A stretch of 64,000 nucleotides of DNA from Acidobacteriota bacterium (GCA_016710075.1 JADJLO010000038.1:238137-302136), one strand, 5' to 3'; positions 2,979 to 49,189 are shown, counted from the first letter of the stretch. Notes: a model not told the origin generated them from the sequence alone. Program-made: numbers and translations.

Positions 2979-3468
2979 TCACTGTGCGATAACACGCATC
3001 CACGCCGCCAGCGACACCAGACCCATGAATTTATCGATCGTTTTGAATTTGTTACCTGGAACGATGATCGTGTCACCCGGCGCCAGAAAGAGGTCGCGAG
3101 CCTTGCCGCTCTCGACATCCTTGATATTGACCTTGATCGGAACAGTCTGGCCGCCGGACTGCAAACGCAGGATGTTGACATTCTTCCGGTCACCGAATTT
3201 TGTTATGTAACCGGCTTTCGCCAGGGCTTCGGTGAGGCTCATCCGGCGCGTCATCTCATAAATCCCGGGAGTCACCACGTCGCCGACCACCTGTGGTCGT
3301 AAAAAAATTGTTAATATAGGGCAGGACCGCCGCCTCTGCCTCGGTCGAATCTTCACGACGCAAGCCCTGGCGTTCCGCTTCAGTTACGGGTTTTCCGCCC
3401 ACAGGCTGTTGTGCCCGCACATCCGGCGCCAGCAGTAAAATCAGCAAGACTATGCCTGTATACTTCAT
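2979..3468 (-). CDS. polysaccharide export protein (Wza/SLBB-domain family), reading frame broken at a T7/A7 homopolymer (~3302-3308); possible pseudogene, phase-variable gene or sequencing indel
   Basis: Track ORFs 3256..3468 (signal peptide MKYTGIVLLILLLAPDVRA...) and 2979..3356 (…VVGDVVTPGIYEMTRRMSLTEALAKAGYIT…PGDTIIVP, SLBB-like) overlap in different frames. Removing one T from the TTTTTTT run joins them into a ~162-aa signal-peptide + SLBB protein. Confidence 0.55.
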
Positions 3469-3516
3469 CGCCTGATTAACCTCTTTGAACTTTAGACATT
3501 AAACTTTGAACTTCCC

Positions 3517-4989
3517 TTACCTGCCATACCCGATTAACACGATCTTGATGGATTTGAAAATTATCCATGCATCAAAAAGCAGGGATGTATTTTTGATGTA
3601 ATAGAGATCGTACTGAAGTTTTTGTATGGCGTCCTCCACCGAGGCGCCGTATCCATAATTGACCTGGGCCCAGCCGGTCAGCCCGGGTTCGACCAGATGG
3701 CGTTGCGAATAAAACGGGATCTGCGTTGTCAACTGATCGACGAAAAACGGCCTCTCCGCGCGCGGGCCGACAAAGCTCATCTCACCGCGAATTATATTGA
3801 TGAATTGGGGAATCTCGTCGATTCGGGTCTTGCGGATGAAATTGCCGACCCTGGTGATGCGCGGATCCCTTTTTAAGGCCCACTGAGGCGTGCCGTCTTT
3901 TTCAGCATCGGTTCTCATAGAGCGAAATTTGATAATTCTGAAAATCCGTCCGTTCTTGCCGACGCGCTCCTGAGTGTAAAAGACCGGGCCTTGTGATTCG
4001 ATTTTTATGGCAAGAGCTGTGAGCAAAGCAAGGGGCATGGAGAGTAACACGCCGATGAAAGCGGCGGTAAAATTGAAGAGCCTGCGCAGCAGGTTCCCGG
4101 CCGTTCGCCTCTTGCCGCCGCCTGAAAAGATGACCCAGCTCGGGCGCAGCATTTCAATCTTGATTTTGCCGGTCAGTTTTTCATAAAGCGACGTGCCTTC
4201 CTCGATTGCGGCGCTCCCCTGAAGTCTTATCTGAAGCAGTTGATCCACCGGCATATGGCCGCGTCGATCCTGAAGCGCAACGACGACTCGATCGATATTC
4301 TCCTTTTCAACGATACTGATCAGATCGCCGACGACGCCAAGCACTGAGGGGTTGATCAGACTCTTGCCGACCAGCGCCGGATCCTCGGAGACGAATCCGA
4401 CGACCTTGTAGCCAAGGTCTTTTCTCAGCATGGCTTCGTGCGCGACTTCGCGCGCCAGATTGTCCGTCCCAATGATCAGTAACCTTTCGCCGAGCAGCGG
4501 GTGCCTCATCAGCCAGTGAATAACCAGCCGCCAGCAGATCATCATCAACAATGCGAGAATCATCGCAATCAGCGGGACACCGTTTGCGTAATGGCCAACG
4601 CCTCGCCCTTCAATCTCCTGCAGGTAGCCTATCAGCAGGGTCGGCCTCAGCATGAAAATCAGCCCCAGAATGAGGATCGCCACTCCTACCGCCTGAAAAA
4701 TATCGGTCAGCAGCTCACGTCGCAGCCGCGGTTTGGAAACATCATAAAGATCGAAAAGATAGAAGATGAACTGACAAATGAAGGTGGTAAAGAAGATCTT
4801 ATATATCCCGCGCTGCTCGAAGAGGACGGAGCCGGCGAAGCTTCCAAACCTCAGATAAAGACCAAGCAGAACGATCGTGAAGATGATTGCCGTCTCCACA
4901 AGAAGAAGTGTGAGGGTTTTAATTAATATTCCTCGGCGTCCCATAGTGCCACCAAGCGTCCGCTGAATGACGTCACGCCAGATCGTCAT
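3517..4989 (-). CDS. exopolysaccharide biosynthesis polyprenyl glycosylphosphotransferase (bacterial sugar transferase, WbaP/EpsB-like)
   Basis: 490 aa; N-terminal TM segments, central NAD-binding-like region and C-terminal sugar-transferase block (…PRITRVGNFIRKTRIDEIPQFINIIRGEMSFVGPRAERP…) characteristic of the family. Confidence 0.85.
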   Translation of the reverse strand: MTIWRDVIQRTLGGTMGRRGILIKTLTLLLVETAIIFTIVLLGLYLRFGSFAGSVLFEQRGIYKIFFTTFICQFIFYLFDLYDVSKPRLRRELLTDIFQAVGVAILILGLIFMLRPTLLIGYLQEIEGRGVGHYANGVPLIAMILALLMMICWRLVIHWLMRHPLLGERLLIIGTDNLAREVAHEAMLRKDLGYKVVGFVSEDPALVGKSLINPSVLGVVGDLISIVEKENIDRVVVALQDRRGHMPVDQLLQIRLQGSAAIEEGTSLYEKLTGKIKIEMLRPSWVIFSGGGKRRTAGNLLRRLFNFTAAFIGVLLSMPLALLTALAIKIESQGPVFYTQERVGKNGRIFRIIKFRSMRTDAEKDGTPQWALKRDPRITRVGNFIRKTRIDEIPQFINIIRGEMSFVGPRAERPFFVDQLTTQIPFYSQRHLVEPGLTGWAQVNYGYGASVEDAIQKLQYDLYYIKNTSLLFDAWIIFKSIKIVLIGYGR

Positions 4990-4999
4990 CGTGCATCAT

Positions 5000-5989
5000 T
5001 CAGAGCCGCATTATCCTTCCGATAAAACTCCGGCGAATTCTGTCGATCGCCTTATCTCGCACCCGTTGGCGCCGCTTTTCCCTGTCCGAATAATTGTAGT
5101 AATAATCATAGTACCCCGTATCCCTGATATTCTCGGCTCCGTTGAGGACGACGCCGAGGATCCGACCGGCCGGAAGGGAGTCAATGGCTTTTTCAATAGT
5201 GTCGTAATCGGCCATTCCCGCCCTTATCACCAGCAGGACTGAATCCGAATGGTTTGCCAGCAATCCGGCATCGGCAAAGGGGAGCACCGGGGGCGAATCG
5301 ATCAGAATGAAATCGTAATAATCGCGCAGTGAGGCAATAGTTTCGGCAAGTTTGCTGCTCGAAAGCGCTTCAGTCGGATTTTCAGTCTCGCGACTCGCCG
5401 GAAGAATGTCCAGCCCGGCAGTTTCAAGCCTGATCACGGCTTCTTTCAGATCGCACTGCGAACTTAACAACTCGCCGAGCCCTTTTGAAACCCTCAGCCC
5501 CAGATAAGCGCTGATGTTGGGCCTTCTCAAATCCCCGTCGATAACCAGCACTCTTTTCTCTTTTGATTGAGCGATCGCAATCGCCAGGTTGAGAGCCGTC
5601 GAGGTCTTCCCTTCACCGGCAATAGCGCTGCTCACCGTCAGCACTTTGACGTCCTTCTTTTGAGCATCGTGAAAAATCCTGGTTCTGAGAGTTTTGAACT
5701 GTTCGCACTCGGGGGCAAGCGGCTGTGTCAGCATGATCAGCCGCGGATGCAGGTGAGAGATGACGATTTTTTCGATCCTGTCAACTTGAAGTACGATGGT
5801 GCGGGGATTTACCGGCGCTTGTCTGAGGACGGGGCCGGCGGGAGCTCCAATCGCACTCGATAATTCCAGATCTTCGTAATCATCAGATTCGGCAGGCGCG
5901 GCAATTGGCGTTTCGGCCGGCCGGCCTTCCTCATCCTGATCATTGATTTCCTGCCGCCGGCGCTTGAGCGCCTCAAAGATTCTGGTCAT
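5000..5989 (-). CDS. polysaccharide biosynthesis tyrosine autokinase (BY-kinase, CpsD/CapB-like)
   Basis: 329 aa with Walker A in …VSSAIAGEGKTSTALNLAIAIA…, Walker A' VLVIDGDLRRP and C-terminal Y-rich cluster (GYYDYYYNYSD) typical of BY-kinases. Confidence 0.8.
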   Translation of the reverse strand: MTRIFEALKRRRQEINDQDEEGRPAETPIAAPAESDDYEDLELSSAIGAPAGPVLRQAPVNPRTIVLQVDRIEKIVISHLHPRLIMLTQPLAPECEQFKTLRTRIFHDAQKKDVKVLTVSSAIAGEGKTSTALNLAIAIAQSKEKRVLVIDGDLRRPNISAYLGLRVSKGLGELLSSQCDLKEAVIRLETAGLDILPASRETENPTEALSSSKLAETIASLRDYYDFILIDSPPVLPFADAGLLANHSDSVLLVIRAGMADYDTIEKAIDSLPAGRILGVVLNGAENIRDTGYYDYYYNYSDREKRRQRVRDKAIDRIRRSFIGRIMRL

Positions 5990-6034
5990 AAATGAAAGTA
6001 CTCAGGTTCGATTTCGAATAGACGAGGGGCCTGT

Positions 6035-7003
6035 TTAATCGCGCTTGTTGAAGCGCCCGGCAGATCTTCTGCGGACCGGCTTTATCTCCGATACTTTTGA
6101 TTCAGCCGGATGCTCCTCCTCTTCCCACCAGTCATCGAGCTGATCGGCATTTATCGAGAGAACTGGGGCTGCGTCTACTGCCCCGGCGTGAAGCGGAGGA
6201 GGCGCCAGATCGAGTGACTCGCAGACATCTGAAACAATCCCAGCGGTGATCAGCTTTTTATGCATCGCATAACCGCTGACCAGCGCATTGTCGCATATAT
6301 TGTTGATCAATCGTGGAATTCCTTCCGACGCCCGGCCAATGAGATCGATCGCATCTGAAGTGAAAAGGTCTAATCTCGCCGCGCCGGCCACCTTCAACCG
6401 CTTGCGAAGATAACCTGAGACCTCGTCCGACTTGAGCGGCTTGATCTCGCATCTCAGGCTGATCCGCTGCTTGAGCTGGCGCAGGCCCGGGTGATTCAGT
6501 TTTTCACGCAGTTCCGGCTGTCCCGAAAGGATTATCTGCAACTGTTTCTCCGTGTCGGTCTCAAAATTGAGCAACAGTCTGATCTCTTCAAGAAGTTCGC
6601 GTGAAAGCCCCTGGGCTTCATCGACGATCAGAACCGTCCTCAAACCCCTCGAATGCCTGACCGCCAGCATTTTGCCCAGCCTGATCAGCAGATCCGATTT
6701 GGACTTGTGTTCGTCGATGGCGAAATCACCGGCAATGTTGTGGTAAAACTCATCCACGCTCAGGCCCGGATTGACGATATTCGATGTCAGCACACTGCGA
6801 TCGAGCCGCGACATTATCGCTCTGATTACCGTAGTCTTCCCCGTGCCGACCTCTCCTGTCGCCACAATCAACCCCTTGCCATGCTGGATGCCGTATTGAA
6901 GATTCGCCAGGACTTCTCGATGACTCGGCGTGTAATAGAGAAAACGAGGATCGGGCGTCAGGCTGAAGGGAATCGATTTTAGACCGTAATATTGAAGATA
7001 CAT
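6035..7003 (-). CDS. ExeA-like AAA ATPase (secretion/EPS-locus associated, EpsE-like)
   Basis: 322 aa; …GLIVATGEVGTGKTTVIRAI… P-loop and overall resemblance to the general secretion pathway protein A / PEP-CTERM-locus ATPase family; 6 nt from the next gene. Confidence 0.7.
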   Translation of the reverse strand: MYLQYYGLKSIPFSLTPDPRFLYYTPSHREVLANLQYGIQHGKGLIVATGEVGTGKTTVIRAIMSRLDRSVLTSNIVNPGLSVDEFYHNIAGDFAIDEHKSKSDLLIRLGKMLAVRHSRGLRTVLIVDEAQGLSRELLEEIRLLLNFETDTEKQLQIILSGQPELREKLNHPGLRQLKQRISLRCEIKPLKSDEVSGYLRKRLKVAGAARLDLFTSDAIDLIGRASEGIPRLINNICDNALVSGYAMHKKLITAGIVSDVCESLDLAPPPLHAGAVDAAPVLSINADQLDDWWEEEEHPAESKVSEIKPVRRRSAGRFNKRD

Positions 7004-7008
7004 ATTAA

Positions 7009-8601
7009 TCAGTTATCTCCCGCGACCATGCTCAGTACGCCCGAGAGCCTGATAGCCTGGTACAAAGCCGGGATCGCCGCTGAAATCAGAATTATAACAG
7101 CCAGGATTTTGGCCGTTGCCATGACAGGCTGCCAGCGCCTCTCCTGTGGAGTCGAGATTCTCGGCACGGCGGCCAGCAGCGGCAGCTTCGCATAATGGGC
7201 CACATCACGAGCGTCACGGATGGTCATCAAAGCCCTGACTTCAAAAGCAGCGGCAGCGATCAGCCCCGAAAGCAAGCCGATAAAGAGAGAGAGCGGGTAG
7301 AGAGCCCTCCTGTTGGGAGATGCCGGGACCTCGGGCAGTCCGGCCGGATCCGACATCCTGAAGGTCTCGCCGCTAAAGTCGTTGATCACCCTGGCGCTGA
7401 ATTTTGCATTGTCTCTCATGGCGAGAAGGTCTTCGTATCTCTTGCGAAGTGTTGTGTAATCCCGTTCGATCCTCGTCGCTTCGGTGGCCAGCAGCGGTGT
7501 GGAACGCAGGCGAGACTGCAGCTCGGCATATTGCCTGTTGGTCTGCTCAAGCTCGGCCTCCTTTCTAATCAGATCTCTTTTGTCCGCTGCGATACGAATC
7601 TCCATCCCCGAGATTTGAGAATTCCCTCTGCGCGCCGATCTTCTGGCCTGGCGATCCTGCTCAATCCTGTTTCTCAGATCGTCCATCTCTTTATTGATTG
7701 ACTCTATCTGGACGCGGACCTTGATTACTTCGGGGTTCTTCTCGGTATAGGTGGTGAGCAGTTGTTTGAGTTGTGATTCAAGGTCGGCGCGTCTCGACCG
7801 GAGTTGTCCCTCGGTCTGCCCCGCTGATACAGGGACATCCGGCATCTCGGAATCCTGGGTTTTCAAAGTGGTCAGCAGTTGCTCATTCGTAGCTGTCTGA
7901 CTGCGCAGCGTATCGATCGACGATTGTTGAGACTGTCTGATCATGCCGAGGCTGTTCATCTGGCCGATCATATTCTGCTCCTGCCCCGGCAGGGCATCCG
8001 GATTTCTGACCAGGTATCCGGCCCGGGCCGACTCGATTTTCTCAAGCTCGCCTTTGACCTCGTTGATTCTCCCTTCCAACTGGTCGATCGTGGTATAAAC
8101 CTGCCGGCGAGTCTCATCAGAGTTGGCATCGATGAATCTGGCCGCCAGTTCCGCCGTCACGTCTCTCACCGTTCGCGGATCGGTCCCCCTGAACGATATC
8201 GAGAAGGCATAGACTCCCGCACTCGCGCTGAAAGGCTTGACCGTGATGTGTCTGAGCATCTCTTCTATCACCAGTTCGATCGGAGCGTTGCGGCGGGCCA
8301 TCTCCTGATAAAGTCCGAACCGGCCGATGATCCTTTGAAGTTCCGTGCGGCTCGTTACCTGCTTCTGAATCGTGCTCAGCCTCGAATTGAGATCTATCTG
8401 ATTGACCGGTTGAACGTATGCGGATGAAACCTTTGGCGGATCGACGATGATCACCGTCGTCGATTCATAGATGTCGGGCAACTTTCTGACGGCATAGCCC
8501 AGAGCCGCAGTCACGATGATAAACGGAACCAGGACGTAGTACCGCCTCACCCACAAAAGCTGCAGATACTCCGCCGGTGTCCTGATTCTTAAAGCCGCCA
8601 T
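7009..8601 (-). CDS. polysaccharide chain-length determinant (Wzz/GumC-family co-polymerase) with long coiled-coil periplasmic region
   Basis: 530 aa; N-terminal TM (YYVLVPFIIVTAALGYAV), Wzz-like start (…IYESTTVIIVDP…), long Q/E/R-rich coiled-coil, C-terminal TM. Confidence 0.75.
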   Translation of the reverse strand: MAALRIRTPAEYLQLLWVRRYYVLVPFIIVTAALGYAVRKLPDIYESTTVIIVDPPKVSSAYVQPVNQIDLNSRLSTIQKQVTSRTELQRIIGRFGLYQEMARRNAPIELVIEEMLRHITVKPFSASAGVYAFSISFRGTDPRTVRDVTAELAARFIDANSDETRRQVYTTIDQLEGRINEVKGELEKIESARAGYLVRNPDALPGQEQNMIGQMNSLGMIRQSQQSSIDTLRSQTATNEQLLTTLKTQDSEMPDVPVSAGQTEGQLRSRRADLESQLKQLLTTYTEKNPEVIKVRVQIESINKEMDDLRNRIEQDRQARRSARRGNSQISGMEIRIAADKRDLIRKEAELEQTNRQYAELQSRLRSTPLLATEATRIERDYTTLRKRYEDLLAMRDNAKFSARVINDFSGETFRMSDPAGLPEVPASPNRRALYPLSLFIGLLSGLIAAAAFEVRALMTIRDARDVAHYAKLPLLAAVPRISTPQERRWQPVMATAKILAVIILISAAIPALYQAIRLSGVLSMVAGDN

Positions 8602-12029: not shown

Positions 12030-14390
<2,361 letters not shown>

Positions 14391-14450
14391 GATTTTCAAC
14401 ACATCTTCAGCGCAGAGTCAGGATTATAGCATGGCGGGTGGATTATCAAG

Positions 14451-17715: not shown

Positions 17716-18986
<1,271 letters not shown>

Positions 18987-27748: not shown

Positions 27749-28708
<960 letters not shown>

Positions 28709-36490: not shown

Positions 36491-36542
36491 ATCGGGTGTC
36501 TTCAAGATCGAAGCCGCGAGTTTCCGGTTTCAAAACAGTGTT

Positions 36543-37598: not shown

Positions 37599-37663
37599 CG
37601 TTTGACCTCCAATTTGTTATTTAAGAAAGAATCCCACATCCGCGGCAATGACCGCGCCTCTCG

Positions 37664-38725
37664 TTATTTTTTCAAGTATTGATCAAACCATTCGATTGCG
37701 AGTTTGATCGCGCGCTCGCGCTCCGTGGTGTATATGCCGTAGTGCGTAATGCCGGGCACGAGCACATACTTCTTTGGTTGCGGGGCGCGATCGTATGCGA
37801 GTTTGCCGTGAAGCTTGATGTCGAAGAGTTCTTCTTTTTCGGCATCAATAAACAGGGCCGCGCAGTTTTTGAGTTTGGCGGCCTCTTCAACCGGCGAATA
37901 GAGTAGCAGTTTATTTCGAATTGGAGCGCCGATCAGGCTGCCGACCACGACCTGGCGGGGCGGCGGATAGCCCAGTTCGCCGCGCGCGCGGCGGGTCGCT
38001 TCGTCATATGCGGATTTCAACTGATCGGCCTCGTTGCCCGCCAATACGGTCATTGCCGCCGGACGCGAATCAAACGCGGACACCTGGCCTACGATGGCCC
38101 TGACACGCGAATCGTGCGCGGCAACGTAAACGATGTGGCCGCCCGAATAACTCGATCCGCGCAGGCCAATGCGGTCTTTGTCCACCATTGGTTCGCCCAT
38201 CGCCCAGTGAATCGCATTGAACCAATCGGTGACGAATTCCAGTGGATCAACGACCTCGCGCACTTCCATAACTTCGGCGGTAAATTTCTGCGCTTGCCCG
38301 TATTTCGGTTTGACCGGCGAAGTGCCCGTTAAAATCAAGCGCGAATCGCTTTCGCCCCAGCCGCGATAATCGAATGTCAACACCAGATAGCCCGCGTTCG
38401 CCAGATCAATCGAATCGCGCCGAAAGGCCGCAGCCGTGCCGCCCCAGCCGTGAGCTTGAATAATCGTCGGCAGCTTTTTGCCCGCCAGTGATTTGAGTGA
38501 AAAGAGTTCGCCATACATCCGCACACCTTCACTGATGATGTTGACGCGGCGAAAATCGAGGTTGTCGGGCGCTTTGAAATTCGCAAGGGCTGCTTGTTGT
38601 TGCGCCGCCGGGTCAGGCGGGCGCTGTGGTTGCCCGGCTGTCTGATTGCTTTGCTGTGCAGACAAGCGCTGCGTGAAAAGCAACATGACGAAAGTGAGGG
38701 TCATGATTGTTTTGTGCTTCAGCAT
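37664..38725 (-). CDS. secreted alpha/beta-hydrolase paralog
   Basis: Start at internal MLKHKTIMTLTFVMLLFTQRLSAQQ signal peptide; nucleophile elbow …GLRGSSYSGGH…; same fold blocks as 36543..37598. Confidence 0.7.
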   Translation of the reverse strand: MLKHKTIMTLTFVMLLFTQRLSAQQSNQTAGQPQRPPDPAAQQQAALANFKAPDNLDFRRVNIISEGVRMYGELFSLKSLAGKKLPTIIQAHGWGGTAAAFRRDSIDLANAGYLVLTFDYRGWGESDSRLILTGTSPVKPKYGQAQKFTAEVMEVREVVDPLEFVTDWFNAIHWAMGEPMVDKDRIGLRGSSYSGGHIVYVAAHDSRVRAIVGQVSAFDSRPAAMTVLAGNEADQLKSAYDEATRRARGELGYPPPRQVVVGSLIGAPIRNKLLLYSPVEEAAKLKNCAALFIDAEKEELFDIKLHGKLAYDRAPQPKKYVLVPGITHYGIYTTERERAIKLAIEWFDQYLKK

Positions 38726-38810
38726 AATTTCTCCTTGAAGTAGCGTTCGTAGCATTATCATCAAGCCAATGAGGTTGCAGACGAAAACTGTCCTGCAGTA
38801 TCGGGAATCT

Positions 38811-40844
38811 TTATGGCTTGTTCTGCGGCAATGCAAAGAGCAACACCGTCGCCGAGCCTTTGGCCGCAAGCCAGAATCCGGTTGCATTGCCGGAATTGAC
38901 TGCAATGTACTGCCGTCCGTTGATCGCGTAACTGATGATACCGCCATTGAGCGGCCCCCCGGCATTGAAGCGATAAAGCACCTTGCCATCACGCGCGTCC
39001 AGCACTAGAAAGTCACCCGTCAGTTCGCCTGTAAAAATCAACTCCGCCGACGTCGTCGTCACTGCTGCCAGCATCGGTCGTTGCGATTCGTACTTCCAGC
39101 GCACTTGTCCGGTCGCCGCATCGATCGCCGTCAACCAGCCGCGCGATTGCTCCACCGGATCCCGGACAGAAGTCCCGCCCATGTAACCGCCCACCCCCGC
39201 GCGAAACTCCTTCGCTTTTTTAAACGTTGAGCACCAATCGACCGCGTTGACAAACAACATATTCAACCCTGGATTGTAGGCCGGCCCATTCCATTGCACA
39301 CCACCCAGCACACCCGGGCAGGCGTAAACACCTTCGGTTGTATTTAGCGGCACATCAGGGTTCTTGCGCGTTGTCACCGGCACCGCGTAAAGATGTTCGT
39401 GCGTTTCGCGATCGAGCACGTGCAGTAATCCATCTTTGCCGGTGGTTGTAATCAGCTTGCGCATTTTGCCGTTTATTCTGGTTTCAAACAGCGGGCTGAC
39501 CTGTGTCACATCCCAGTCGTGAAAATCGGCCGGCACTGCCTGGTAGAACCATTGCAATTTGCCGGTGCGCGCATCGAGCGCCAGCAACGAGTTGGTGTAA
39601 AGATTGTTGCCCAACCGCGAGTCGGTATAAAAATCAGGTGCGGGATTGGAAACCGGCACGTAAAGCACGCCTTTTACAGGGTCAAGCGAAAGGGGTGCCC
39701 AGATGGAGCCGCCGCCGGTCGTCAGGGCCGTGGGATCTTTCCATGTTTCCGCGCCCGGTTCGCCTTCGTCAGGAACCGTATTAAAGCGCCAAACCGGCGC
39801 GCCGTCTTCCAGGCGAAAAGCGCCGACCCAGCCTTTGACGCCGGATTCGCTGCCCGCCGGACCGATCAGAATCAGGTCTTCGTAAAGCAACGGCGCCATC
39901 GTAAAACCCGCTTCGCGTTTCTTGCGATCCAATATTGGACGTTCCCACAGCAGCTTGCCGTTCGCAGCATCGTAAGCGACCAAATACCCATCGTGCGTGC
40001 CGCGTATGACCTTGCCGTCTTTGAGCGCGACGCCGCGGTACATGAGCCAGCCGTCGGGCCCTTTCGGCTTGCGATCAACGCGCCATTTCACCTTGAGCGT
40101 TGTCGCATCCAGCGCCATCGTCGCATTGCTCGTCGACACATACATCACGCCTTGATACACCAGCGGGTTGTTGTGAAAGACGTTGGCATCGGCGACCTGA
40201 TAAATGGCAACCGGTTGCAACGATGCGGCATTGCTGCGATTGATCTGCTTGAGGTCTACGAAACGCTGCCCACCGTAATCGTGATTTGAGTGCAACCAGT
40301 CGGTGTTATTGTTCGCGGCGGCGTTCAATTCGGCTTGCGTCGGTCCGGCTGTGCTCGCCTTCGCACCGCTGCTGAAGAATTCAGGCGCGGCAGTCTTCGC
40401 GACAGGAACGCCTGATTGCCGCGCAATCCTGGTTTGCTTCAGCTTTGCCTCATCCGCAGTCAGTTCACGAGGGCCTGCCGCATAACCATTGCTCGAGAGC
40501 ATGAAGGCCACGATGTCAAGGTATTGCTCAACGGTGAGCGAATCGGGCTTGCCATAAGGCATCTCCATTTTGGTGATGTTGTAAAGTTCGCCAAGCGCGC
40601 GCTCGTTCCACTTGGCCATGAAACGCTCACCCGCGAGCGGGCTGGACGGTGTGCCTTCAAGGCTCTGTCCGTGGCACGAAGCGCAATGCTGCGCATAAAG
40701 CCGCTTGCCGCGTTCGGCTTGCGCCTGGCTGTAAAGCCGTTCAGTTTGCGAGGACGCAGAAGGCAACACCGCCATCATTGCCGCGCCAAGACATAATATT
40801 GCCAGGGTGAATCGCCCACCCCACCTGAACAAATCAAGATTCAT
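38811..40844 (-). CDS. PQQ-type beta-propeller dehydrogenase-like protein with N-terminal cytochrome c domain (putative quinohemoprotein)
   Basis: Signal peptide, CASCHG heme-binding motif, then at least 5 A.D..tG...W-type propeller repeats (…LVAYDAANGKLLWE…, …LLALDARTGKLQWFY…, …LTAIDAATGQVRWKY…). Track start TTG at 40862; ATG with SD at 40844. Confidence 0.7.
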   Translation of the reverse strand: MNLDLFRWGGRFTLAILCLGAAMMAVLPSASSQTERLYSQAQAERGKRLYAQHCASCHGQSLEGTPSSPLAGERFMAKWNERALGELYNITKMEMPYGKPDSLTVEQYLDIVAFMLSSNGYAAGPRELTADEAKLKQTRIARQSGVPVAKTAAPEFFSSGAKASTAGPTQAELNAAANNNTDWLHSNHDYGGQRFVDLKQINRSNAASLQPVAIYQVADANVFHNNPLVYQGVMYVSTSNATMALDATTLKVKWRVDRKPKGPDGWLMYRGVALKDGKVIRGTHDGYLVAYDAANGKLLWERPILDRKKREAGFTMAPLLYEDLILIGPAGSESGVKGWVGAFRLEDGAPVWRFNTVPDEGEPGAETWKDPTALTTGGGSIWAPLSLDPVKGVLYVPVSNPAPDFYTDSRLGNNLYTNSLLALDARTGKLQWFYQAVPADFHDWDVTQVSPLFETRINGKMRKLITTTGKDGLLHVLDRETHEHLYAVPVTTRKNPDVPLNTTEGVYACPGVLGGVQWNGPAYNPGLNMLFVNAVDWCSTFKKAKEFRAGVGGYMGGTSVRDPVEQSRGWLTAIDAATGQVRWKYESQRPMLAAVTTTSAELIFTGELTGDFLVLDARDGKVLYRFNAGGPLNGGIISYAINGRQYIAVNSGNATGFWLAAKGSATVLLFALPQNKP

Positions 40845-41091
40845 GCCTAACCTCCAATTCAAAAGAGACAGGATTGACAGGATGTTTCACAACCTCACTG
40901 AATTGCCGATACAGCCCAGGCGCCGGCGCCCTGGCAACCGTATATCTGCCGGACGCAATTCCCCAAATGCAATTCAATTGATTCGGTGATCATTCTTTAG
41001 ATTTAATTTCAGTATAGCCCTTGCCGCCATATTGGGCACAATCAATTCCGCATGGTTGGAAATCAACCAAGTATGAAGTCATCAGGCGCAT

Positions 41092-42009
41092 TTACTTTTT
41101 CCAGTATCCGGTGAAAAACCACAGATTGAGTTCCTGCTCGAAGGCGCCTGGAAGATCGCGCTTAAGCATTGAAGCAAACCATCGCGGGAAAGATTCCAGG
41201 GTTTTGCGAATCAGGAATCTCGGCATACCGAAGATCCGAGGCGCCGGTAGTGAATGGAGCCGGTTCATCACCGCCATTGAAGCGCCATAACTGCGATACC
41301 ACTTGCGAAAATAGTTTCTGGTGAGCCTCGCGGCCGGAATTCTGTGAAAGACCTTCATCCGGGGCTCATAGACGCCGCGAAATTTTGCGGCCCTGAGTCG
41401 GAGATAAAACTCGCTGTCTTCGCATAATCCAAGGGCTTCGCCGAAACCACCCAGATCGGTATTGAACACTCCGGTCTTTTCGAGCACCCGGCGAAGCACT
41501 GCCCCGTTGCCGCCGGAAAAACCGTGATGCGTGGCTGTATCATCGTCATGATCGTGCAGGATTCTTTGATCACCGCCGTCAAAAAGCGATACTGGCCCGC
41601 GCAGCCTGTCGTCATACCAGCGCGGAGGCGGGATTTCCCAGTCACCGTACACGGGCCCGGTAGCATAATCATACCCGTCTGTGAAGACCCGATGAATGGC
41701 GCAAAGCCATTGATCATCGACAAGCTGGTCGTCATCGGTGAAGGCGATTATTTCAGCGGTCGTGTTTGCTATCCCGGTATTGAGGGCGAAGGATTTCCCC
41801 TGCCTCGGTTCGAATAAATAGCGTAGCCGGCCGCCGGTATGCTCCGCGAGTTCCTTGACCACATCTCGTGTAGAGTCATTTGAATTGTTGTCGACGACGG
41901 TTATCGAATAATCGAATCCAGGTTCACGACCTGCATCGAGCACGCTCTTCAATGCTTTCTCAAGATAATCGGCTCGATTGTATGTGGCAATGATGACGTC
42001 GATATTCAT
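41092..42009 (-). CDS. glycosyltransferase family 2
   Basis: …MNIDVIIATYNRADYL…VVDNNSND… and DDD motif. Confidence 0.8.
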   Translation of the reverse strand: MNIDVIIATYNRADYLEKALKSVLDAGREPGFDYSITVVDNNSNDSTRDVVKELAEHTGGRLRYLFEPRQGKSFALNTGIANTTAEIIAFTDDDQLVDDQWLCAIHRVFTDGYDYATGPVYGDWEIPPPRWYDDRLRGPVSLFDGGDQRILHDHDDDTATHHGFSGGNGAVLRRVLEKTGVFNTDLGGFGEALGLCEDSEFYLRLRAAKFRGVYEPRMKVFHRIPAARLTRNYFRKWYRSYGASMAVMNRLHSLPAPRIFGMPRFLIRKTLESFPRWFASMLKRDLPGAFEQELNLWFFTGYWKK

Positions 42010-42058
42010 GATTGATAACTTATCAAAACGGACAGGTCGCGTTGAGGAGCATTCGCAT

Positions 42059-43588
42059 CTAACGGGATCTCTTAGTGGCTTCAATCAAAATAACTCCACT
42101 CAATGCGGGCCATCTTTTCGCCGCGCGGTGCCAGAGGCGTTCAATCCGGGACACGAGCGGGATGTGACCGTAAACGTCCGGATGTTCGAGCAGTTCGATC
42201 TTCCAGGATTCAAACTCCGATTGAGTGAAGATTTCTTCGATCCTCGAAGGACGATTGAAGCGGAAATAAGTCGGGTAAGCTTCCGAGCCCGAACGTTTCT
42301 CGAACATCGAGACAATAGCCGGATGAAGAGCATTCGGAATGGCGCGTGCGACGATGGAGACTATGTCTAGAGAGTTCGGTGTAATCGCGAGCAGCACTCC
42401 ACCGGGTCGCAGAACTCGTGCAATTTCCGCAAGCACCGGCCCGGGATCCGGCAGATGTTCAAAGACCATGTTTGAAGTTACGAGATCGAAACTGTCGTCA
42501 GTGAAAGGCAGGCGCCCGGCTCCCGCAAGAATTCTCTCATGGCAGAAATCATTTTCGAGCAGTGCCTCACGATCACCGTCAACTCCGACAATCAACCCCG
42601 ACAGGGATTTCAAATCCTCTTCGAGTTCGAGTTTGCCTCGCAACCACCATGGCACAGCGCCGCGACCGCAACCCAGATCGAGCCATCTGGAATCTCCTCT
42701 AAGGCGATCCCGCAACCGGTTCAGGTATGTTTTCTGAGGATGTTGAGGCTGGGCGGATCCTCGAAGCCTGCGGGATGAGTTCCGGTCGATGGCGTCCTCG
42801 ATCAGATTGTAGATGGAGTTTCCCGGATTTTTCCCGACGACGTGAAAATCAAAACGGGCAAGCCAATCGGCTTTGTCTCGAACGCGGCGAAGCCCGCTTT
42901 CTCTAAGACTGCGCCTGATGACGGAATCATCCTTCATGAGATGCATCGGACGTTGATCGTCGATTCCCGCCCGGTAGTTGAAAATCAGACGGCCGCCATC
43001 TTTCATGGCAAGGCTCAACTCCTTCATTTCCGCTGCCGGGTCGACCAGGTGCTCAAACACATCTGTGGCGGTGATCATGTCAAAATATCTTCGCGGCAAA
43101 GGGTTCTCATTGAGATCGAGAAACTCCGCTTTCAAACCTCTTCGCTCGAACCTCCACCTGGCAAAGTCGAGCATCGTCGAAGAAATATCGGCGATGGTCA
43201 CACTGAATCCATGACGGGCGAAAAGAATCCCGGTCGATCCGACTCCTGATCCAAAATCGAGAAAACAAGAAGCTCCAGTGTCTTTGGCATAATCCAGAAT
43301 CGCGACGTTGATCGAATTGGTTTCAAGATCGGCCGCGTGCCACCAGATATGCTCGTAGATATAACTTTGCGTGTGACGGTAGAATTCGCGGATCTGAGCC
43401 GGCGTTTGGCGCGGCGCCGAAAGCCATTCGGATCTGGAATCGGCCAGGGCATTTTCGCACAAGCCACGGGCAGCTTTCGCGCTAATTCCAAAATACTCGG
43501 ACAGCTCGCGAAGAGAGCTTTCAATCAAGTCGTCTTCTTCAGGCAGAAGCAGCGCATCGCGCCATTCCGCCGCCCACCTGCTCTTCAT
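42059..43588 (-). CDS. tandem class I SAM-dependent methyltransferase (two MTase domains)
   Basis: Two SAM-binding motif I blocks (…FLDFGSGVGSTGILFA… and …WLDLGCGRGAVPWW…), each followed by motif II/III-like segments (…ITATDVFEHL…, …VTSNMVFEHL…). Confidence 0.75.
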   Translation of the reverse strand: MKSRWAAEWRDALLLPEEDDLIESSLRELSEYFGISAKAARGLCENALADSRSEWLSAPRQTPAQIREFYRHTQSYIYEHIWWHAADLETNSINVAILDYAKDTGASCFLDFGSGVGSTGILFARHGFSVTIADISSTMLDFARWRFERRGLKAEFLDLNENPLPRRYFDMITATDVFEHLVDPAAEMKELSLAMKDGGRLIFNYRAGIDDQRPMHLMKDDSVIRRSLRESGLRRVRDKADWLARFDFHVVGKNPGNSIYNLIEDAIDRNSSRRLRGSAQPQHPQKTYLNRLRDRLRGDSRWLDLGCGRGAVPWWLRGKLELEEDLKSLSGLIVGVDGDREALLENDFCHERILAGAGRLPFTDDSFDLVTSNMVFEHLPDPGPVLAEIARVLRPGGVLLAITPNSLDIVSIVARAIPNALHPAIVSMFEKRSGSEAYPTYFRFNRPSRIEEIFTQSEFESWKIELLEHPDVYGHIPLVSRIERLWHRAAKRWPALSGVILIEATKRSR

Positions 43589-43626: not shown

Positions 43627-44568
43627 TTAATATCCGTCCCGTCTCCACATCACCCAGGGCGCGGCCAGCAGGCCAACAATCAGGCCGTATACCTGCCCAC
43701 GCCTGCGTCTGAGCAGATCCTCGGAATCAGCATTCCGACGGCTCCATCTTTTCGGGACTTTGAGAAATGTCCAGTAGAGTACGCGCATGGCGTATCTGTC
43801 GCCTCGCATTGCATGCTTCATCAGATATGCCGAGAACCCTTTCGCATAACCATATTCGAGGCGAACGGCCTGATCGACACTCTTTCTGTCGTGATTGTGA
43901 TAAACGATCACAGTGGGCGCATAGAGCAAACGGCATCCGCTTCTGAGCGCACGGTAGAAGATTTCGGCTTCATCGGCGCCTGCAAAAAATCGCCCGGCTC
44001 CGAGCCTGACATCGAATCTGCCGATGCGATCGAAGATCTCACGGCGAAATGCCATGTTGGCGCCCATCAGAAAAAAACCCGGATCCGGAAAGACAAAAGT
44101 CTGGCGTTCTTGAGAAACCTGAAGCGATACACGCTGTAGATCATCGGAGCCCGGCAGAACACGCCCTCCAAGCACCAAAAGCTCCGGATCAGAGCCGAAT
44201 TCATGATAAATCTCGTTGAGCCATTCGGAGTCAACCAGGACGTCATCATCCGTGAAAACGATGATCTCGCCCACGGCTGATTCAATTCCCGCATTGCGGG
44301 CAAACGTCAGTCCCTTGCGCGGCTCAGCGATGTAACGAACATGGTCAGGATATTTTTCGATCCAGCGGCGAACAAACGCCTCCGTTCCGTCGCTTGAACC
44401 GTTGTCGACCACAATGACTTCATACGCATATTCACCTGAAAATTTCTGAGCTGAAAATATTTCAAGCGTTCGTTCGAGCGACCGTACGCGATCACGCGTG
44501 CAAATAACGACGCTGACTTTCGGCCTTTGCCTTTCGGGATTTGCAGATGGCAACGATGACAGGTTCAA
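43627..44568 (-). CDS. glycosyltransferase family 2
   Basis: …[18 protein letters not shown]…[10 protein letters not shown]… and FTDDD motif; 4-nt overlap with upstream GT1. Confidence 0.8.
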
Positions 44569-45797
44569 AGCGGCTGTTGTTTCACCCTTTCATTTAAAAG
44601 CGATCGGTAAATCCCGGAATATTGACCGGTGATCGTGTTCCAATCCCGCTCTTCAAGAGCATAGTCGCGTGCATTGCGGCTCAATTCGGCTCTAGACATG
44701 GGATCATCAAGGACCCTTTCCAGAGATTGAGCCAGCAGGCGCGGGCTGGCCGGTTGAACGAGGCACCCGGTCACGCCGTCCCTGATCAGTTCGCGCATAC
44801 CGCCCACATCCGATGCGATCACGGCTTTTCCCATCGCCATCGCTTCAAGAGGCTTCAAAGGCGTGGTCAATTCGGTCAGCCTTGAACTGATACGGGGATA
44901 GACTAGAACATCCATGACCGAGTAGTAACGTCTTATCTGATCGTGATCGACCTTGCCGGCGAAGATGAAACCGTCCTGCAGATCGGCCGGTATCGACTGT
45001 CTCAAGGCGGCCTCGCACTCACCCTCTCCAACCAGCATCAATCGCAAGTCCGCGCGCTTCTTCATCAGAATGATCATTGCATCGACAAGGTATTCCAACC
45101 CCTCGTAAGAATAGAACGATCCGATGAAACCCGCAGTCAGCTTTTCCTTGAGACCGTACTGTTCGGTCAAATCAGCATCGGGAGGCACTGGCTGAAAGAA
45201 GTCCGCATCGACGCCATTGGGAACGACAAAGATTTTCGCAGGCGGTATCCCCCGTCTGATCAGGTCGTCCCTCAGGGCTTCGCTGATCACTGCGATCTTC
45301 GCGGCCTCTTCGAGCACCGACTGCTCGAGCTTTCTCGAAGTCCTGTATTTGAGGGAGTTGTAACGCGTTTTCCCGCGATCGACCGCGGCATCCTCGTCGT
45401 AATAATGCAGATCGTAAAGCCAGGGCAGGCCCGTTTCTTTTGAGGCTCTGGCTGCCGCCATTCCATTGAGCGACGGTGAATGGGCGTGGATCAGATCTAC
45501 TTTGTGCTCCATGGCCAGCACCGCGATGGTCCTCGACAACGATGCCAGCGTAGCCATCTGCCTGAACATTGATACCGATTTAAGCCTTGAAGATAAACTG
45601 AAAACCGGCCAGTCGGTGCGATGATATTCGATCCCGTTTATCGTCTCCAGTTCGCCGGGGCAATCCCCGTGTTTCGGCGAAGTGACCGCAAGCGGATCGA
45701 TTCCCAGCCGCCGCTGTGTCCTGAGAATGTAGTCGCTTCGTATGCTGTAACCGCTGATCAGAGGCAGCGAGTGATCGAGGACATGAAGGACTTTCAT
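44565..45797 (-). CDS. glycosyltransferase family 1
   Basis: 410 aa GT-B; overlaps neighbours by 4 nt on both sides (operonic). Confidence 0.8.
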
Positions 45798-47053
45798 CGA
45801 TTGGCTTTTCGCGTGTTTTTATTACTCAAGTCGGAACCGCTCATCGTCCGACTGCCGGCAACGGACTCAACGACCTCGACCATGCCTTGAAGCAGCGGTT
45901 TCCATGCATGCCGCTGCTCCACGAAGTTTCGGGCACTGAGTGAGAGCGTTTCACTCAAAGCCGCATCTTCCATAATTCCGATCACCGATTCGGCGAAGCG
46001 CTCGGGTGAACCGGCCACAATCAGCTCTTGTCCATCAGTCAGACCCAACCCGGCAACAGATTCAGGCGCGGCAACTACGGGCCTGCCGCAAGCCATAGAC
46101 TCAAGCACCTTATTCTGCACGCCTCTGGCGATGCGCAGCGGAACCACGCAGACAGCCGCTTTTCGCAGGTACGGCCTGACGTCAACGACATATCCCGTCA
46201 CCTCTATGCCGGCCGACTGTGCAAGCTTTCTGATCGCACGAGCCGGATTCGAACCGACTATCTGGAATATGACTTCAGGTTTTCGCAAGCGGATCAGCGG
46301 CAGAACATCGTCGACAAACCATTTCACCCCGTCAATATTGGCAAAATAATCCATCGCCCCAACGAAGACCAGATGTTTGGGCTTCTCGTGAGAAGGCTCG
46401 TTTCGGACATTGAAAAATTCCAGATCGACTCCATTGGTCATGAGGGTGACCTTCGCCCGTCTTGAAAATTCATCCAGGCTCTTTTCGAGCAGCGCCGCTT
46501 CACGGCTTGTCGCCAGAAATGTCTGGGGGAATTTCAGGATCACTCCGGTTTCAAACTTCCTCAGTCGCGCAGATTCAAGTCGGTAGAGCCATGATCGAGG
46601 CCACTTGACCACCCTGGAATAATCAAGCCATTTCTCCGAATCGACATCGACAAGATCGACAACCGTTCTGGAGGCCAGATGATCGGGGACATACTGCGCC
46701 ATCACCCCGGAGTAAACGAAGACTGCATCGAAATCATGGCTGGCTGTCGCATCTGTCACCGCTCGCGCCATCTCGCCTGAATGAAAATAGCCGGTCGAGA
46801 GTGCCTCATTAGTCACCAGGCTCCACACCGTTCGAAGCAGGGACTCAGACCGGCGCAGCTTGATTATCCGCACCGAAGCACAATGCCGGGCAAGCTCAGT
46901 CTCATGCTCCTGATCGTCGATGCCGCCGGCAAATGCAAGTAGATGAACCTCGTGCCCGCAATCAACAAGCGCTCTCAATTCATGATAAGACCTGATCTTG
47001 TCGCCTTTGTCAGGCGGATATGGAATTCTGTGTGCGAGGTATAGTAATTTCAT
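45794..47053 (-). CDS. glycosyltransferase family 1 (exosortase/PEP-CTERM-locus-associated sugar transferase type)
   Basis: 419 aa; MKLLYLAHRIPYPPDKGDKIRSYH… start typical of the EpsH/PEP-CTERM-associated GT1 subfamily. Confidence 0.75.
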   Translation of the reverse strand: MKLLYLAHRIPYPPDKGDKIRSYHELRALVDCGHEVHLLAFAGGIDDQEHETELARHCASVRIIKLRRSESLLRTVWSLVTNEALSTGYFHSGEMARAVTDATASHDFDAVFVYSGVMAQYVPDHLASRTVVDLVDVDSEKWLDYSRVVKWPRSWLYRLESARLRKFETGVILKFPQTFLATSREAALLEKSLDEFSRRAKVTLMTNGVDLEFFNVRNEPSHEKPKHLVFVGAMDYFANIDGVKWFVDDVLPLIRLRKPEVIFQIVGSNPARAIRKLAQSAGIEVTGYVVDVRPYLRKAAVCVVPLRIARGVQNKVLESMACGRPVVAAPESVAGLGLTDGQELIVAGSPERFAESVIGIMEDAALSETLSLSARNFVEQRHAWKPLLQGMVEVVESVAGSRTMSGSDLSNKNTRKANR

Positions 47054-47054
47054 A

Positions 47055-48143
47055 TCAGGGCAGATATTTCACGATTCGCGGGCCAATCAGCTTTGTCAGA
47101 CTCAGCGGCAGGCGCTTCCACGCCTCAATGAAAATTCTGAATTTCGGATTCAGCGGATTTATTTCAGGCGCTTTGCCGCCGCCGAAGTGAAAACACCTGT
47201 AATTCAGCTGTTTTTCATTCATCTTCCAACCGCGTTTGAACCGGTAAGATCCGGTTCCCTTTTTACTGCGGCCAAAATCGAAGCGAGTGAAGCCGCGGCC
47301 GGCCGAGAGACGCATAAGCTCTGAGTACATGAAATTGTTGATCCCCGCTCGATGGAACTCGGGATACGCGCCCGCGTAGTATGGCATGACGCAGTCGCGA
47401 AAATAGAAGCTCATGACTGCGCCTGCCAGTCTTCCTCCAGATCCTCTCGCCTGCCTGACAGCCAGGATGTCGCAACTTTCCGGAAATGCTCGCAGAAATT
47501 CCAGGAACAATCTCTTGGGGAAAACAGGCGTGCCGAGGTTCCTCACACTCCTCGCGTATACCTCGTAGAACTCATCGAGCAACTCTTCACCACCTCTGAC
47601 TGCATATAATCCCGCCGCCATGCCGATCCTGATCATCCTGCGAACGTCCCCCGGATAGCCTCTCATCCGATCATCGTCATCCTCGGCGATTCCGCTTTCG
47701 AATGTCACATAGAGATCCACGGTATCTGACATTGCGTCATCGTAATTAAAACTGGCCTCCGCGGTTTGACGCAATTCGAGATAGTCCACTTTCCGTTCGA
47801 TTGCGATCTCGCGGGCCCGGTGAATAAGTGCCTGGTATGTGGCCTGATCATCTCCCAGAACGCCTCCGTATACCGCATTCGGACTCGAAACCAGCATCGA
47901 CCCGTAAAAGAGTCCGGGAATGCCGCCCTTTACCAGAAACAGCGGCAGGACGCCGGTGATCTCTCCTCCCCGTTCGGCATAAATACAGAAGGACCGATGC
48001 CCCCAGGTATTGCAAACCACCCTGATCCATCCACTCAAATGGCAGAAGGTCGCCTCTCGTGTCTTCAGGACATAATCATCCCATCGACCGGAATCAGCCT
48101 CGGAATACTCTTTTACTGTTACTGTTATTTCGCTGAGAGACAT
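47055..48143 (-). CDS. FemAB-like/GNAT-fold acyltransferase (PEP-CTERM-system-associated FemAB-related protein type)
   Basis: 362 aa; two GNAT-like halves; position between the GT operon and polysaccharide deacetylase mirrors the exosortase-associated FemAB-related family. Confidence 0.65.
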   Translation of the reverse strand: MSLSEITVTVKEYSEADSGRWDDYVLKTREATFCHLSGWIRVVCNTWGHRSFCIYAERGGEITGVLPLFLVKGGIPGLFYGSMLVSSPNAVYGGVLGDDQATYQALIHRAREIAIERKVDYLELRQTAEASFNYDDAMSDTVDLYVTFESGIAEDDDDRMRGYPGDVRRMIRIGMAAGLYAVRGGEELLDEFYEVYARSVRNLGTPVFPKRLFLEFLRAFPESCDILAVRQARGSGGRLAGAVMSFYFRDCVMPYYAGAYPEFHRAGINNFMYSELMRLSAGRGFTRFDFGRSKKGTGSYRFKRGWKMNEKQLNYRCFHFGGGKAPEINPLNPKFRIFIEAWKRLPLSLTKLIGPRIVKYLP

Positions 48144-48160
48144 AAAAAAGTTGTAATTGC

Positions 48161-48219
48161 TCAGCCCCCATCTTCAAATGTTCAAGAAGATGGGGGCTGA
48201 GCAATTACAAAAAGCTTAA
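48161..48219 (-). terminator. perfect 25-bp stem hairpin (family A core GTAATTGCTCAGCCCCC) followed on the minus strand by a T-run; intrinsic-terminator-like between the deacetylase and FemAB-like genes
   Basis: TTGTAATTGCTCAGCCCCCATCTTC aaatgttca GAAGATGGGGGCTGAGCAATTACAA; minus-strand 3' flank reads CTTTTTTATG. Confidence 0.6.
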
Positions 48220-48235
48220 AGTTTAAACTTTTCTC

Positions 48236-49189
48236 TTAGTCCATCCTGGCATAAGCCGCTGTTGAGCTGATCATTTGTGGTTCGATGGCAGTCACTTCAA
48301 GTTCATTCAGGTAAAGAACCTCGCGGACGGGAGCGAACCTGAAGTCATCCAGCAACTGACTCAGTCTCGGCATGGTGCGATCCAGATTGATCCGGTGCCG
48401 CCAGACATTGAACCGGCCTCCGCTGATTACCGGTTGATCAGGATCGACTTCCCAGGCATGAACCATAAACATCGCCGGCATGCCTTCAGTAGAATTGATC
48501 CGCTTTAAACACCATCGAAACAAGGGATAGGGCAAAAGCCGGAAATAACCGCCTCCTGCCACAGGCAGATTCTGCCCGGCCATTCTTATCGTTGATGGCG
48601 GGAATTCAATGATCTGACCTGCTTCACGTCTGATCACGTGAAGCGATCTTTCCGCGCCAGGCATTCCGTACCTGTCATGGTGAATCGGAAAGATCGATGA
48701 ATCGTACCTGAATCCTTCCTCTATCAGAATATCGAGCGCCCAGAGCGTCTTCGCATTGATCGAATAGGTCGGAGCGCGATACCCGACAACCTCTTCTCCC
48801 GTGACATCCTCCAAAATCTTCCTGGCACGTCTCAGGTCCACCCGAAAAGTTTCGGGGGTCTGACTGGTAATCAACCGGTGATCATAACCATGACACGCTA
48901 TCTCATGCCCGCTATCCGATATTTTTCGAATCAATCTCTGATGATGTTCGGCGACCCAGCCGAGAATGAAGAATGTCGCCTTGAGACCTTTTTGATCAAA
49001 AAGGTCCAGCAACCTGGTGGTGTTCGACTCAATTCTAGGCTCGAAGCGGCGCCAGTCCTGACGCGGAATTATTCCCGAAAAAGCCTCAACCTGGAAATAA
49101 TCCTCCACGTCGACCGTTAAAGCATTTATGGGCGGTTGTGAGTCATTGACCATCTTTTGACCTGGCGATGGAGCAGAGCGGGAAAACAA
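48236..49189 (-). CDS. polysaccharide deacetylase (PEP-CTERM-locus subfamily type)
   Basis: 317 aa; …[15 protein letters not shown]… N-terminal block and …HGYDHRL… His motif. Confidence 0.8.

Follow-up and report, generated by a model that had tools for sequence, protein, structure and literature searches.

Two separated gene blocks of the exosortase-associated exopolysaccharide type in a Blastocatellia genome from activated sludge

How should a set of exopolysaccharide (EPS) genes be read when they belong to families associated with exosortase A (XrtA), lie in two widely separated groups and have no exosortase beside them? The question is raised by a 64,000-nt stretch of an Acidobacteriota bacterium genome (GCA_016710075.1 JADJLO010000038.1:238137-302136), which was analysed in full and is called the window here. 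The source lineage is Blastocatellia (Acidobacteriota) and its habitat is activated sludge; the named homologues of the window's proteins are from Blastocatellia/Acidobacteriota. The EPS genes form two blocks, block 1 (1910-8601) and block 2 (29496-50619), both entirely on the minus strand. Between them are 20.9 kb of unrelated metabolism and regulation genes, including those for a permease, an ABC ATPase and an HD-domain protein, hom, a CztS/CztR-type two-component pair, dapF, MTAP and meaB. An earlier reading made by a model from the sequence alone (the sequence-only reading) had described an export block and a synthesis block approximately 20 kb apart, with no exosortase, PrsK/PrsR or PEP-CTERM protein in the window. 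The open reading frames (ORFs) that it listed are all present and on the minus strand, and its account of the intervening genes and of the absences was confirmed. We conclude that the window probably carries the two halves of one XrtA/PEP-CTERM-associated-type EPS pathway, with the exosortase and its substrates encoded elsewhere in the genome.

Family membership was judged with hidden Markov models (HMMs) and the curated NCBIfam/TIGRFAM thresholds of the XrtA/PEP-CTERM-associated subfamilies, which are calibrated on XrtA-containing genomes. Six proteins score above these cut-offs (Table 1), namely the priming glycosylphosphotransferase of block 1 (TIGR03013) and, in block 2, the polysaccharide deacetylase (TIGR03006), the FemAB-family protein (TIGR03019), the glycosyltransferases encoded by stp1 (TIGR03087) and stp3 (TIGR04063), and the O-antigen-ligase/Wzy-like protein (TIGR03097). 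The sequence-only reading had proposed this comparison and had taken sub-threshold scores, together with the lack of an exosortase elsewhere in the genome, as a sign of an ordinary EPS cluster; with six families above their cut-offs, the scores do not bear this out. The AsnB-type amidotransferase, O-antigen-ligase-like protein, FemAB-like protein and deacetylase that it placed in block 2 match TIGR03108, TIGR03097, TIGR03019 and TIGR03006, respectively, and its count of seven glycosyltransferases in that block was correct (four of the GT4 type and three of the GT2 type). Parts of a Wzy-type pathway are also present: a priming phosphoglycosyl transferase (TIGR03013), a polymerase (TIGR03097), a co-polymerase (TIGR03007-like) and a tyrosine kinase (TIGR01007). 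An intact OPX channel with Poly_export and SLBB domains was not found in this assembly. Homologues of the chain-length determinant with 70-77% identity carry the JGI name 'chain length determinant protein (PEP-CTERM system associated)'.

The contents of the two blocks are complementary. Block 1 includes no GT2- or GT4-type glycosyltransferase and no polymerase, and block 2 includes no priming enzyme, co-polymerase or exporter; thus, neither is self-sufficient. Elsewhere, the same families are encoded contiguously. Three Thermoanaerobaculia/Acidobacteriota loci (L006, L012 and L015) have genes for Wza, the chain-length determinant, the tyrosine kinase, EpsB2, Stp1, the O-antigen-ligase-like protein, AsnB, an Stp3-like protein, the deacetylase and FemAB, contiguous and in this order, and in four gammaproteobacterial loci (L010, L014, L016 and L017), also contiguous, the gene order is chain-length determinant, tyrosine kinase, ATPase, deacetylase, stp1, XrtA, AsnB and stp3. 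This contiguity in relatives supports the proposal, already made in the sequence-only reading, that the blocks are halves of one system.

The split itself is not peculiar to the window. In GCA_016715865.1, from another Blastocatellia genus (chain-length determinant 75% identical), both blocks are on one contig, with approximately 39 kb from the chain-length gene to the regulator-like gene, and the intervening genes are the same as those in the window (hom, FecR, HDAC-like, 7TM-HD and ABC genes). As both blocks surround the same genes in a second genus, the split is conserved, and at least two genera share the two-block layout by ancestry. A further genome has roughly 2000 locus tags between the blocks, and only five or six genes make up its block 2. 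Blastocatellia genera have retained the two blocks jointly. The sequence-only reading was right about the separation, but the weight that it gave to the split and to the missing exosortase calls for tempering, since the split is conserved across genera and an exosortase gene is seldom adjacent to stp1.

For the exosortase, a profile HMM was built from five proteobacterial XrtA sequences, two of which were confirmed as TIGR03109 (299 and 340 bits). It had no match at E≤10 in a six-frame translation of the window. Only four of the window's proteins that reach 200 aa have six or more predicted membrane helices, and each was assigned to another family. A C-terminal motif scan with a heuristic regular expression found no PEP-CTERM-like tail in the window or in the conspecific flank. 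Approximately 5 kb past the window's left end, positions 14564-17626 of L002 encode a protein of approximately 1020 aa with NHL/SBBP repeats, the C-terminal domain of which we take to be of an Acidobacteria type rather than a PEP-CTERM tail. Neither PrsK nor PrsR is encoded in the window, where the sole kinase/regulator pair is of the heavy-metal CztS/CztR type, and no PrsT-like protein is encoded beside block 1. PrsK, PrsR and PrsT have been tied to Proteobacteria only, and other regulators were predicted outside that phylum (Haft et al. 2006, PMC1569441).

Absence from one locus says little, as XrtA is within 10 kb of stp1 in just five of 77 related loci, all five proteobacterial. In the remaining 72, which include a complete Methylomarinum chromosome with PrsK in the locus, it is more than 10 kb from stp1. 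When Stp1 was used to search genome contigs, no match from the window's species was returned, and the best match was to a Blastocatellia contig (52% identity). The five-sequence XrtA profile likewise returned no match attributable to the species, and all of its organism-named matches were proteobacterial. A metagenome search with the O-antigen-ligase-like protein yielded approximately 20 Blastocatellia loci, none of which includes XrtA, and XrtA was not found near block 1 of four relatives. The genes that follow stp1 in relatives were considered as XrtA candidates and rejected; they encode the O-antigen-ligase-like protein, UDP-glucose dehydrogenase, WecB, a second Stp1 or methyltransferases.

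A direct connection to PEP-CTERM export was found in another member of the class. In GCA_035652435.1 (Blastocatellia), the chain-length gene of an orthologous block 1 is preceded by genes for a PEP-CTERM protein and a PrsT-like protein. The PEP-CTERM protein is 241 aa, matches TIGR02595 with 24.5 bits (cut-off 16) and ends in the tail IPEPSTLILLGSGLFGLATLARRRF, and the PrsT-like protein is an 802-aa tetratricopeptide repeat protein (TIGR02917, 269 bits). A second relative, L135, also has a PrsT-like gene there; the TIGR02917 scores of the PrsT-like proteins encoded beside block 1 in L134 and L135 are 269 and 230 bits, below the cut-off of 312. As a PEP-CTERM substrate implies an exosortase, we conclude from these neighbours of the GCA_035652435.1 export block that the exosortase link is real in the class Blastocatellia. 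XrtA is likely to be encoded elsewhere in the genome of the window's species.

Several observations weigh against an XrtA-type pathway in this genome. Five proteins have an XrtA family as their best match at scores below the cut-off (TIGR03007, TIGR03015, TIGR03018, TIGR03088 and TIGR03108). In addition to the window-wide absence, no exosortase was detected within approximately 10 kb to the left of the window (L001-L003) or in any of approximately 30 Blastocatellia/Acidobacteriota loci examined, including the contiguous L006, L012 and L015, with an HMM that might overlook a highly divergent exosortase, its five source sequences all being proteobacterial. No Wzx (MOP-family) flippase was matched among the scanned window ORFs or among the proteins with at least six transmembrane (TM) segments. 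The missing XrtA and the sub-threshold export proteins would suit an EPS cluster of the ordinary Wzy-dependent, Wza/Wzc type that has no more than its ancestry in common with XrtA-linked loci, in a genome, and perhaps a lineage, that lacks exosortase and PEP-CTERM export. We consider this unlikely, because six proteins pass cut-offs calibrated on XrtA-containing genomes, a PEP-CTERM protein and PrsT-like genes adjoin the orthologous export block in other Blastocatellia, and XrtA is distant from stp1 in nearly all related loci, even where PrsK is present. That the blocks are instead independent systems, making or exporting different polymers, is very improbable. In the window, 21 kb of unrelated genes separate them, no 12-mer (at most one mismatch) is common to the regions upstream of the chain-length gene, the deacetylase gene and the gene for a 422-aa protein that heads block 2, and in a different genome roughly 2000 locus tags lie between the blocks. 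However, independence is hard to reconcile with two blocks that are not self-sufficient, with the contiguity of the same families in other phyla and classes, or with the co-retention of both blocks across Blastocatellia genera.

The remaining point against the pathway is damage to two of its genes, which could mean that the system is decaying in this strain. The conspecific set comprised the metagenome-assembled genomes (MAGs) GCA_016711965.1, GCA_016717465.1 and GCA_963852515.1 and one wastewater metagenome contig, which are 98-99% identical to the window where its left end was compared. Relative to these, the Wza-like gene of the window lacks 236 bp (junction 3291/3292); the deletion is out of frame and the Poly_export domain is lost. 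An intact 241-aa Wza-like protein with Poly_export and SLBB domains is encoded in the three MAGs, and the deletion is unique to the window among five sequences of the species. Hence, the Wza-like exporter listed in the sequence-only reading is only a remnant, which had gone unnoticed, while the glycosylphosphotransferase, BY-kinase, ExeA-like ATPase and co-polymerase that it also listed are as described. In block 2, one missing base near 31080 (site GCAAG^ATGG) breaks asnB into two parts, 30999-32591 and 30697-31080, which the sequence-only reading had likewise overlooked; in the relative L085 the gene is intact (627 aa). If both lesions are real, the strain would be an EPS-export-deficient variant in which the locus is being inactivated, a view that is compatible with the XrtA-associated pathway as the ancestral function.

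The wza deletion is too large for a base-calling error, and a real structural difference is present in the same strain at a distance of 1.4 kb. This is a near-perfect 257-bp palindrome (1636-1892) with terminal inverted repeats of approximately 17 nt (GTAACTGCTCAGCCC...) and a predicted hairpin of -133 kcal/mol, inserted between the BNR gene and the tryptophan 2,3-dioxygenase gene; four conspecific sequences lack it. It resembles a miniature inverted-repeat transposable element, and no further copies were found in the window or in the relatives' loci examined. Against inactivation, the homoserine dehydrogenase gene hom (17716-18986) is also split by a single-base indel (CCCC read as CCC at approximately 18103) and is a single 428-aa gene in the relative L136, the MFS transporter gene (57119-58851) is split in the same way, and similar split genes occur in one conspecific long-read MAG (L001). 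As other conserved genes and L001 show such splits, the single-base frameshifts, including that in asnB, are most likely residual long-read assembly errors rather than pseudogenes. The 236-bp deletion may be real or a mis-assembly; if real, it would block export in this strain. Inactivation of the locus is therefore possible, though we think it doubtful.

If the two blocks constitute one XrtA-associated pathway, the TIGR03013 phosphoglycosyl transferase of block 1 would start the repeat unit on undecaprenyl phosphate and the seven glycosyltransferases of block 2 would build it. The deacetylase, FemAB-like transferase, AsnB-like amidotransferase and tandem methyltransferase may modify the product, and the Wzy-like protein would polymerise it. 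Chain-length control and export would fall to the other components of block 1, namely the co-polymerase, the separate tyrosine autokinase, the ExeA-like ATPase, the outer-membrane Wza-like channel and the conserved BNR-propeller protein. Transcription of block 2 is most likely controlled by the 422-aa protein, which may act as a highly divergent sigma factor. The exosortase and PEP-CTERM substrates would most likely be supplied by genes at other sites in the genome, the usual situation among relatives.

Table 1. Genes and other features of the two EPS blocks, with the profile matches on which the assignments are based
Feature	Position	Strand	Evidence
Block 1			
BNR/Ycf48-like beta-propeller protein, conserved last gene of block 1	1910-2962	-	PF14870 PSII_BNR
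Wza/OPX-like exporter gene remnant	2979-3468	-	125-aa ORF 2979-3356; TIGR03027 matches profile positions 85-168 only (C-terminal half)
Priming polyprenyl glycosylphosphotransferase, EpsB_2 type	3517-4989	-	TIGR03013, 459 bits (cut-off 393, above)
Stand-alone BY-type tyrosine autokinase	5000-5989	-	TIGR03018, 163 bits (cut-off 231, below); TIGR01007, 150 bits (cut-off 108, above)
ExeA-like AAA ATPase, XrtA-system-associated	6035-7003	-	sole match TIGR03015, 273 bits (cut-off 324, below)
Chain-length determinant/polysaccharide co-polymerase, first gene of block 1	7009-8601	-	best match TIGR03007, 211 bits (cut-off 279, below)
Block 2			
GT4 glycosyltransferase, last gene of block 2	29496-30689	-	below cut-off; conserved after asnB in relatives
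AsnB-type amidotransferase, split	30697-32591	-	TIGR03108, 629.5 bits (profile 1-503) and 113 bits (profile 504-624)
O-antigen-ligase/Wzy-like membrane protein, putative polymerase	32595-33833	-	TIGR03097, 227 bits (cut-off 188, above); 8 predicted TM segments
PduO-type ATP:cob(I)alamin adenosyltransferase	33870-34424	-	TIGR00636, 213 bits (cut-off 108, above); PF01923
GT4 glycosyltransferase, stp2-like	34444-35577	-	best match TIGR03088, 300 bits (cut-off 409, below)
GT2 glycosyltransferase	35627-36505	-	GT2-type match below cut-off
Lineage-specific insertion	36543-40862	-	cytochrome-c/PQQ-dehydrogenase-like gene 38811-40862; alpha/beta hydrolases 37664-38992 and 36543-37598
GT2 glycosyltransferase	41092-42084	-	GT2-type match below cut-off
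Tandem SAM-dependent methyltransferase, two domains	42059-43588	-	two stretches of Methyltransf_11/12/25
GT2 glycosyltransferase	43627-44568	-	GT2-type matches below cut-off; conserved in relatives
GT4 glycosyltransferase stp3	44565-45797	-	TIGR04063, 451 bits (cut-off 442, above)
GT4 glycosyltransferase stp1	45794-47053	-	TIGR03087, 439 bits (cut-off 317, above)
FemAB-family XrtA-associated protein	47055-48143	-	TIGR03019, 345 bits (cut-off 260, above)
XrtA-system polysaccharide deacetylase	48236-49189	-	TIGR03006, 384 bits (cut-off 276, above)
Helix-turn-helix protein, 422 aa, unannotated Blastocatellia family, heads block 2	49351-50619	-	no Pfam or NCBIfam match
Sigma-70-type promoter-like site (TTGGCA, 18-nt spacer, TATAAT)	51195-51224	-	approximately 570 nt upstream of the 422-aa gene; read from sequence

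The 422-aa protein has 225 homologues (339-467 aa), all of them 'hypothetical' and all of the named ones from Blastocatellia/Acidobacteria; the mean column identity of the family alignment is 62%. In three other genera, a gene of this family is always directly upstream of the deacetylase, FemAB and stp1 genes, on the same strand and after a gap of 0.8-1.0 kb. Among 40 family members compared with Pfam, 31 gave weak helix-turn-helix (HTH) matches, four matched Sigma70_r4 (E≥0.04) and none matched Sigma70_r2. An AlphaFold2 model of moderate quality (pLDDT 67) was compared with known structures using Foldseek, and the best PDB match was weak, to a sigma-D model (E=0.026), with none at E≤0.001. 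A PDB profile search returned nothing relevant, and an hhalign comparison of the family with the extracytoplasmic function (ECF) sigma factor of the window aligned only the region 4.2 HTH (23 columns, 1.5% probability). Recognisable sigma regions 2 and 4 were not found in the 422-aa protein with Pfam and NCBIfam. Relative to ECF-type sigma-70 factors, it is approximately twice the usual length, with approximately 170 residues between its two domains.

The matches above point only faintly to the sigma identity implied by the 'sigma-like' label of the sequence-only reading. The protein can safely be described as an HTH DNA-binding protein tied to the locus, and we hypothesise that it is a sigma factor. 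Tentatively, XrtA-type EPS in Blastocatellia might be controlled by a dedicated, hitherto undescribed and extremely divergent sigma-70/ECF-like factor of approximately 420 aa in place of PrsK/PrsR and sigma-54, one that heads the synthesis operon, has approximately 170 residues inserted between sigma-2-like and sigma-4-like domains, and is preceded by a leader of approximately 0.6-0.8 kb.

Of three orthologous regions upstream of the 422-aa gene, two (L083 and L084) have kept the promoter-like site. The non-coding region 50620-51272 also includes a small hairpin (50679-50662) with apparently compensatory changes and a conserved CCTCAC..TGGTC just before the start codon. The promoter-like site and hairpin, conserved in some relatives, suggest a long leader on the 422-aa gene. 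An Rfam search in sensitive mode over 49150-51350 returned only a chance snoRNA match, and promoter and terminator scans gave counts equal or close to those expected by chance. Between the 422-aa and deacetylase genes, the 161-bp spacer includes a C-rich tract of CCCCGCC-like repeats (GCCGACCCCGCCCACCCCGCCCGCCCCGCCCGC) at 49290-49335 on the minus strand.

Block 2 includes a PduO-type adenosyltransferase gene, a cytochrome-c/PQQ-dehydrogenase-like gene, two alpha/beta hydrolase genes and a tandem methyltransferase gene that the sequence-only reading had missed. Copies of the PduO-type gene that are 76-82% identical were found in 19 Blastocatellia-like metagenome loci (range L085-L106), where they are between stp2 and the O-antigen-ligase-like gene, or beside whichever of these the contig holds. 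As this position is conserved in 19 related loci, a random housekeeping insertion was rejected. Either a B12-related gene group was interrupted by insertion of the O-antigen-ligase-like, asnB and GT4 genes, or the adenosyltransferase acts in the pathway. The tandem methyltransferase gene is kept within the cluster in L082, L084 and L085-L096, and Wzm/Wzt ABC genes are present in block 2 of some relatives. Beyond the terminal GT4 gene there is a terminator-like hairpin (29309-29289), and genes for MeaB and methylmalonyl-CoA epimerase (27299-28876) are just past the end of the cluster.

The other three genes form the lineage-specific insertion, which is missing from eight Blastocatellia loci that have both of the flanking GT2 genes, the starts of which are approximately 1.1 kb apart there. 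The 683-aa product of its first gene has a cytochrome-c domain and a pyrroloquinoline quinone (PQQ) propeller and is acido-empty-quinoprotein-like, with a score below the cut-off. The two alpha/beta hydrolases were considered as members of XrtA-associated hydrolase families, and this was rejected as there was no such NCBIfam match. At least one of these loci, L085, instead has a gene for a distant AsnB-like protein of 639 aa between GT2c and stp2.

At the other end of the locus, the BNR/Ycf48-like gene is directly 3' of the Wza gene in all four of the other Blastocatellia block-1 loci examined and is therefore part of block 1. Block 1 of GCA_016715865.1 (L136, 10001-15625) has the order chain-length determinant, ATPase, tyrosine kinase, Wza, BNR. 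It is without the priming glycosylphosphotransferase, and its priming enzyme must therefore be encoded elsewhere.

Between the blocks, a 790-aa protein (12030-14402) consists of a 7TM-HD(HDIG) domain fused to a polynucleotide-kinase-like domain. Its counterparts in L136 are two adjacent genes (595 and 183 aa), and the single ORF of the window may reflect either a genuine gene fusion or a further artefact of an indel. Rfam searches of the whole window at gathering thresholds gave no matches, and no tRNA genes were found by a tRNA search.

XrtA-type clusters underlie the floc and biofilm matrix of activated sludge, for which the studied case is Zoogloea with its zooglan/PEP-CTERM system. The presence of the same machinery, in a stable two-block layout and without the proteobacterial regulators, in an abundant uncultured lineage of wastewater Acidobacteria widens the range in which matrix systems should be sought, and locus-based detectors that need an adjacent exosortase will miss such systems. 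A single new lead emerges, namely the conserved, unannotated regulator-like family that heads the synthesis block.

Known XrtA (EpsH1) EPS loci include the Methylobacillus eps/methanolan locus and the Zoogloea zooglan/floc-formation cluster (Haft et al. 2006, PMC1569441; epsSMASH preprint 10.64898/2025.12.21.693542). The window resembles these in its families (TIGR03013, 03007, 03018, 03015, 03027, 03006, 03019, 03087, 03088, 04063, 03108 and 03097), in the activated-sludge habitat, and in a Wzy-type logic with a polysaccharide co-polymerase/BY-kinase/OPX export module. It differs from them in that there is no xrtA/epsI between stp1 and asnB, no PrsK/PrsR and a gap of 21 kb between two blocks, the synthesis block begins with a sigma-like HTH gene of an unannotated family, and the PduO-type adenosyltransferase and tandem methyltransferase genes are conserved inside the cluster. 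The Thermoanaerobaculia/Acidobacteriota loci L006, L012 and L015 are from the same phylum, have the same families at 27-53% identity and also lack XrtA within 10 kb. However, their export and synthesis genes are in one cluster of approximately 15 kb, with no 422-aa regulator-like gene. The locus described here is thus an ordinary case among the EPS systems associated with XrtA (Haft et al. 2006, PMC1569441), and in this lineage both the split and the absent exosortase are normal.

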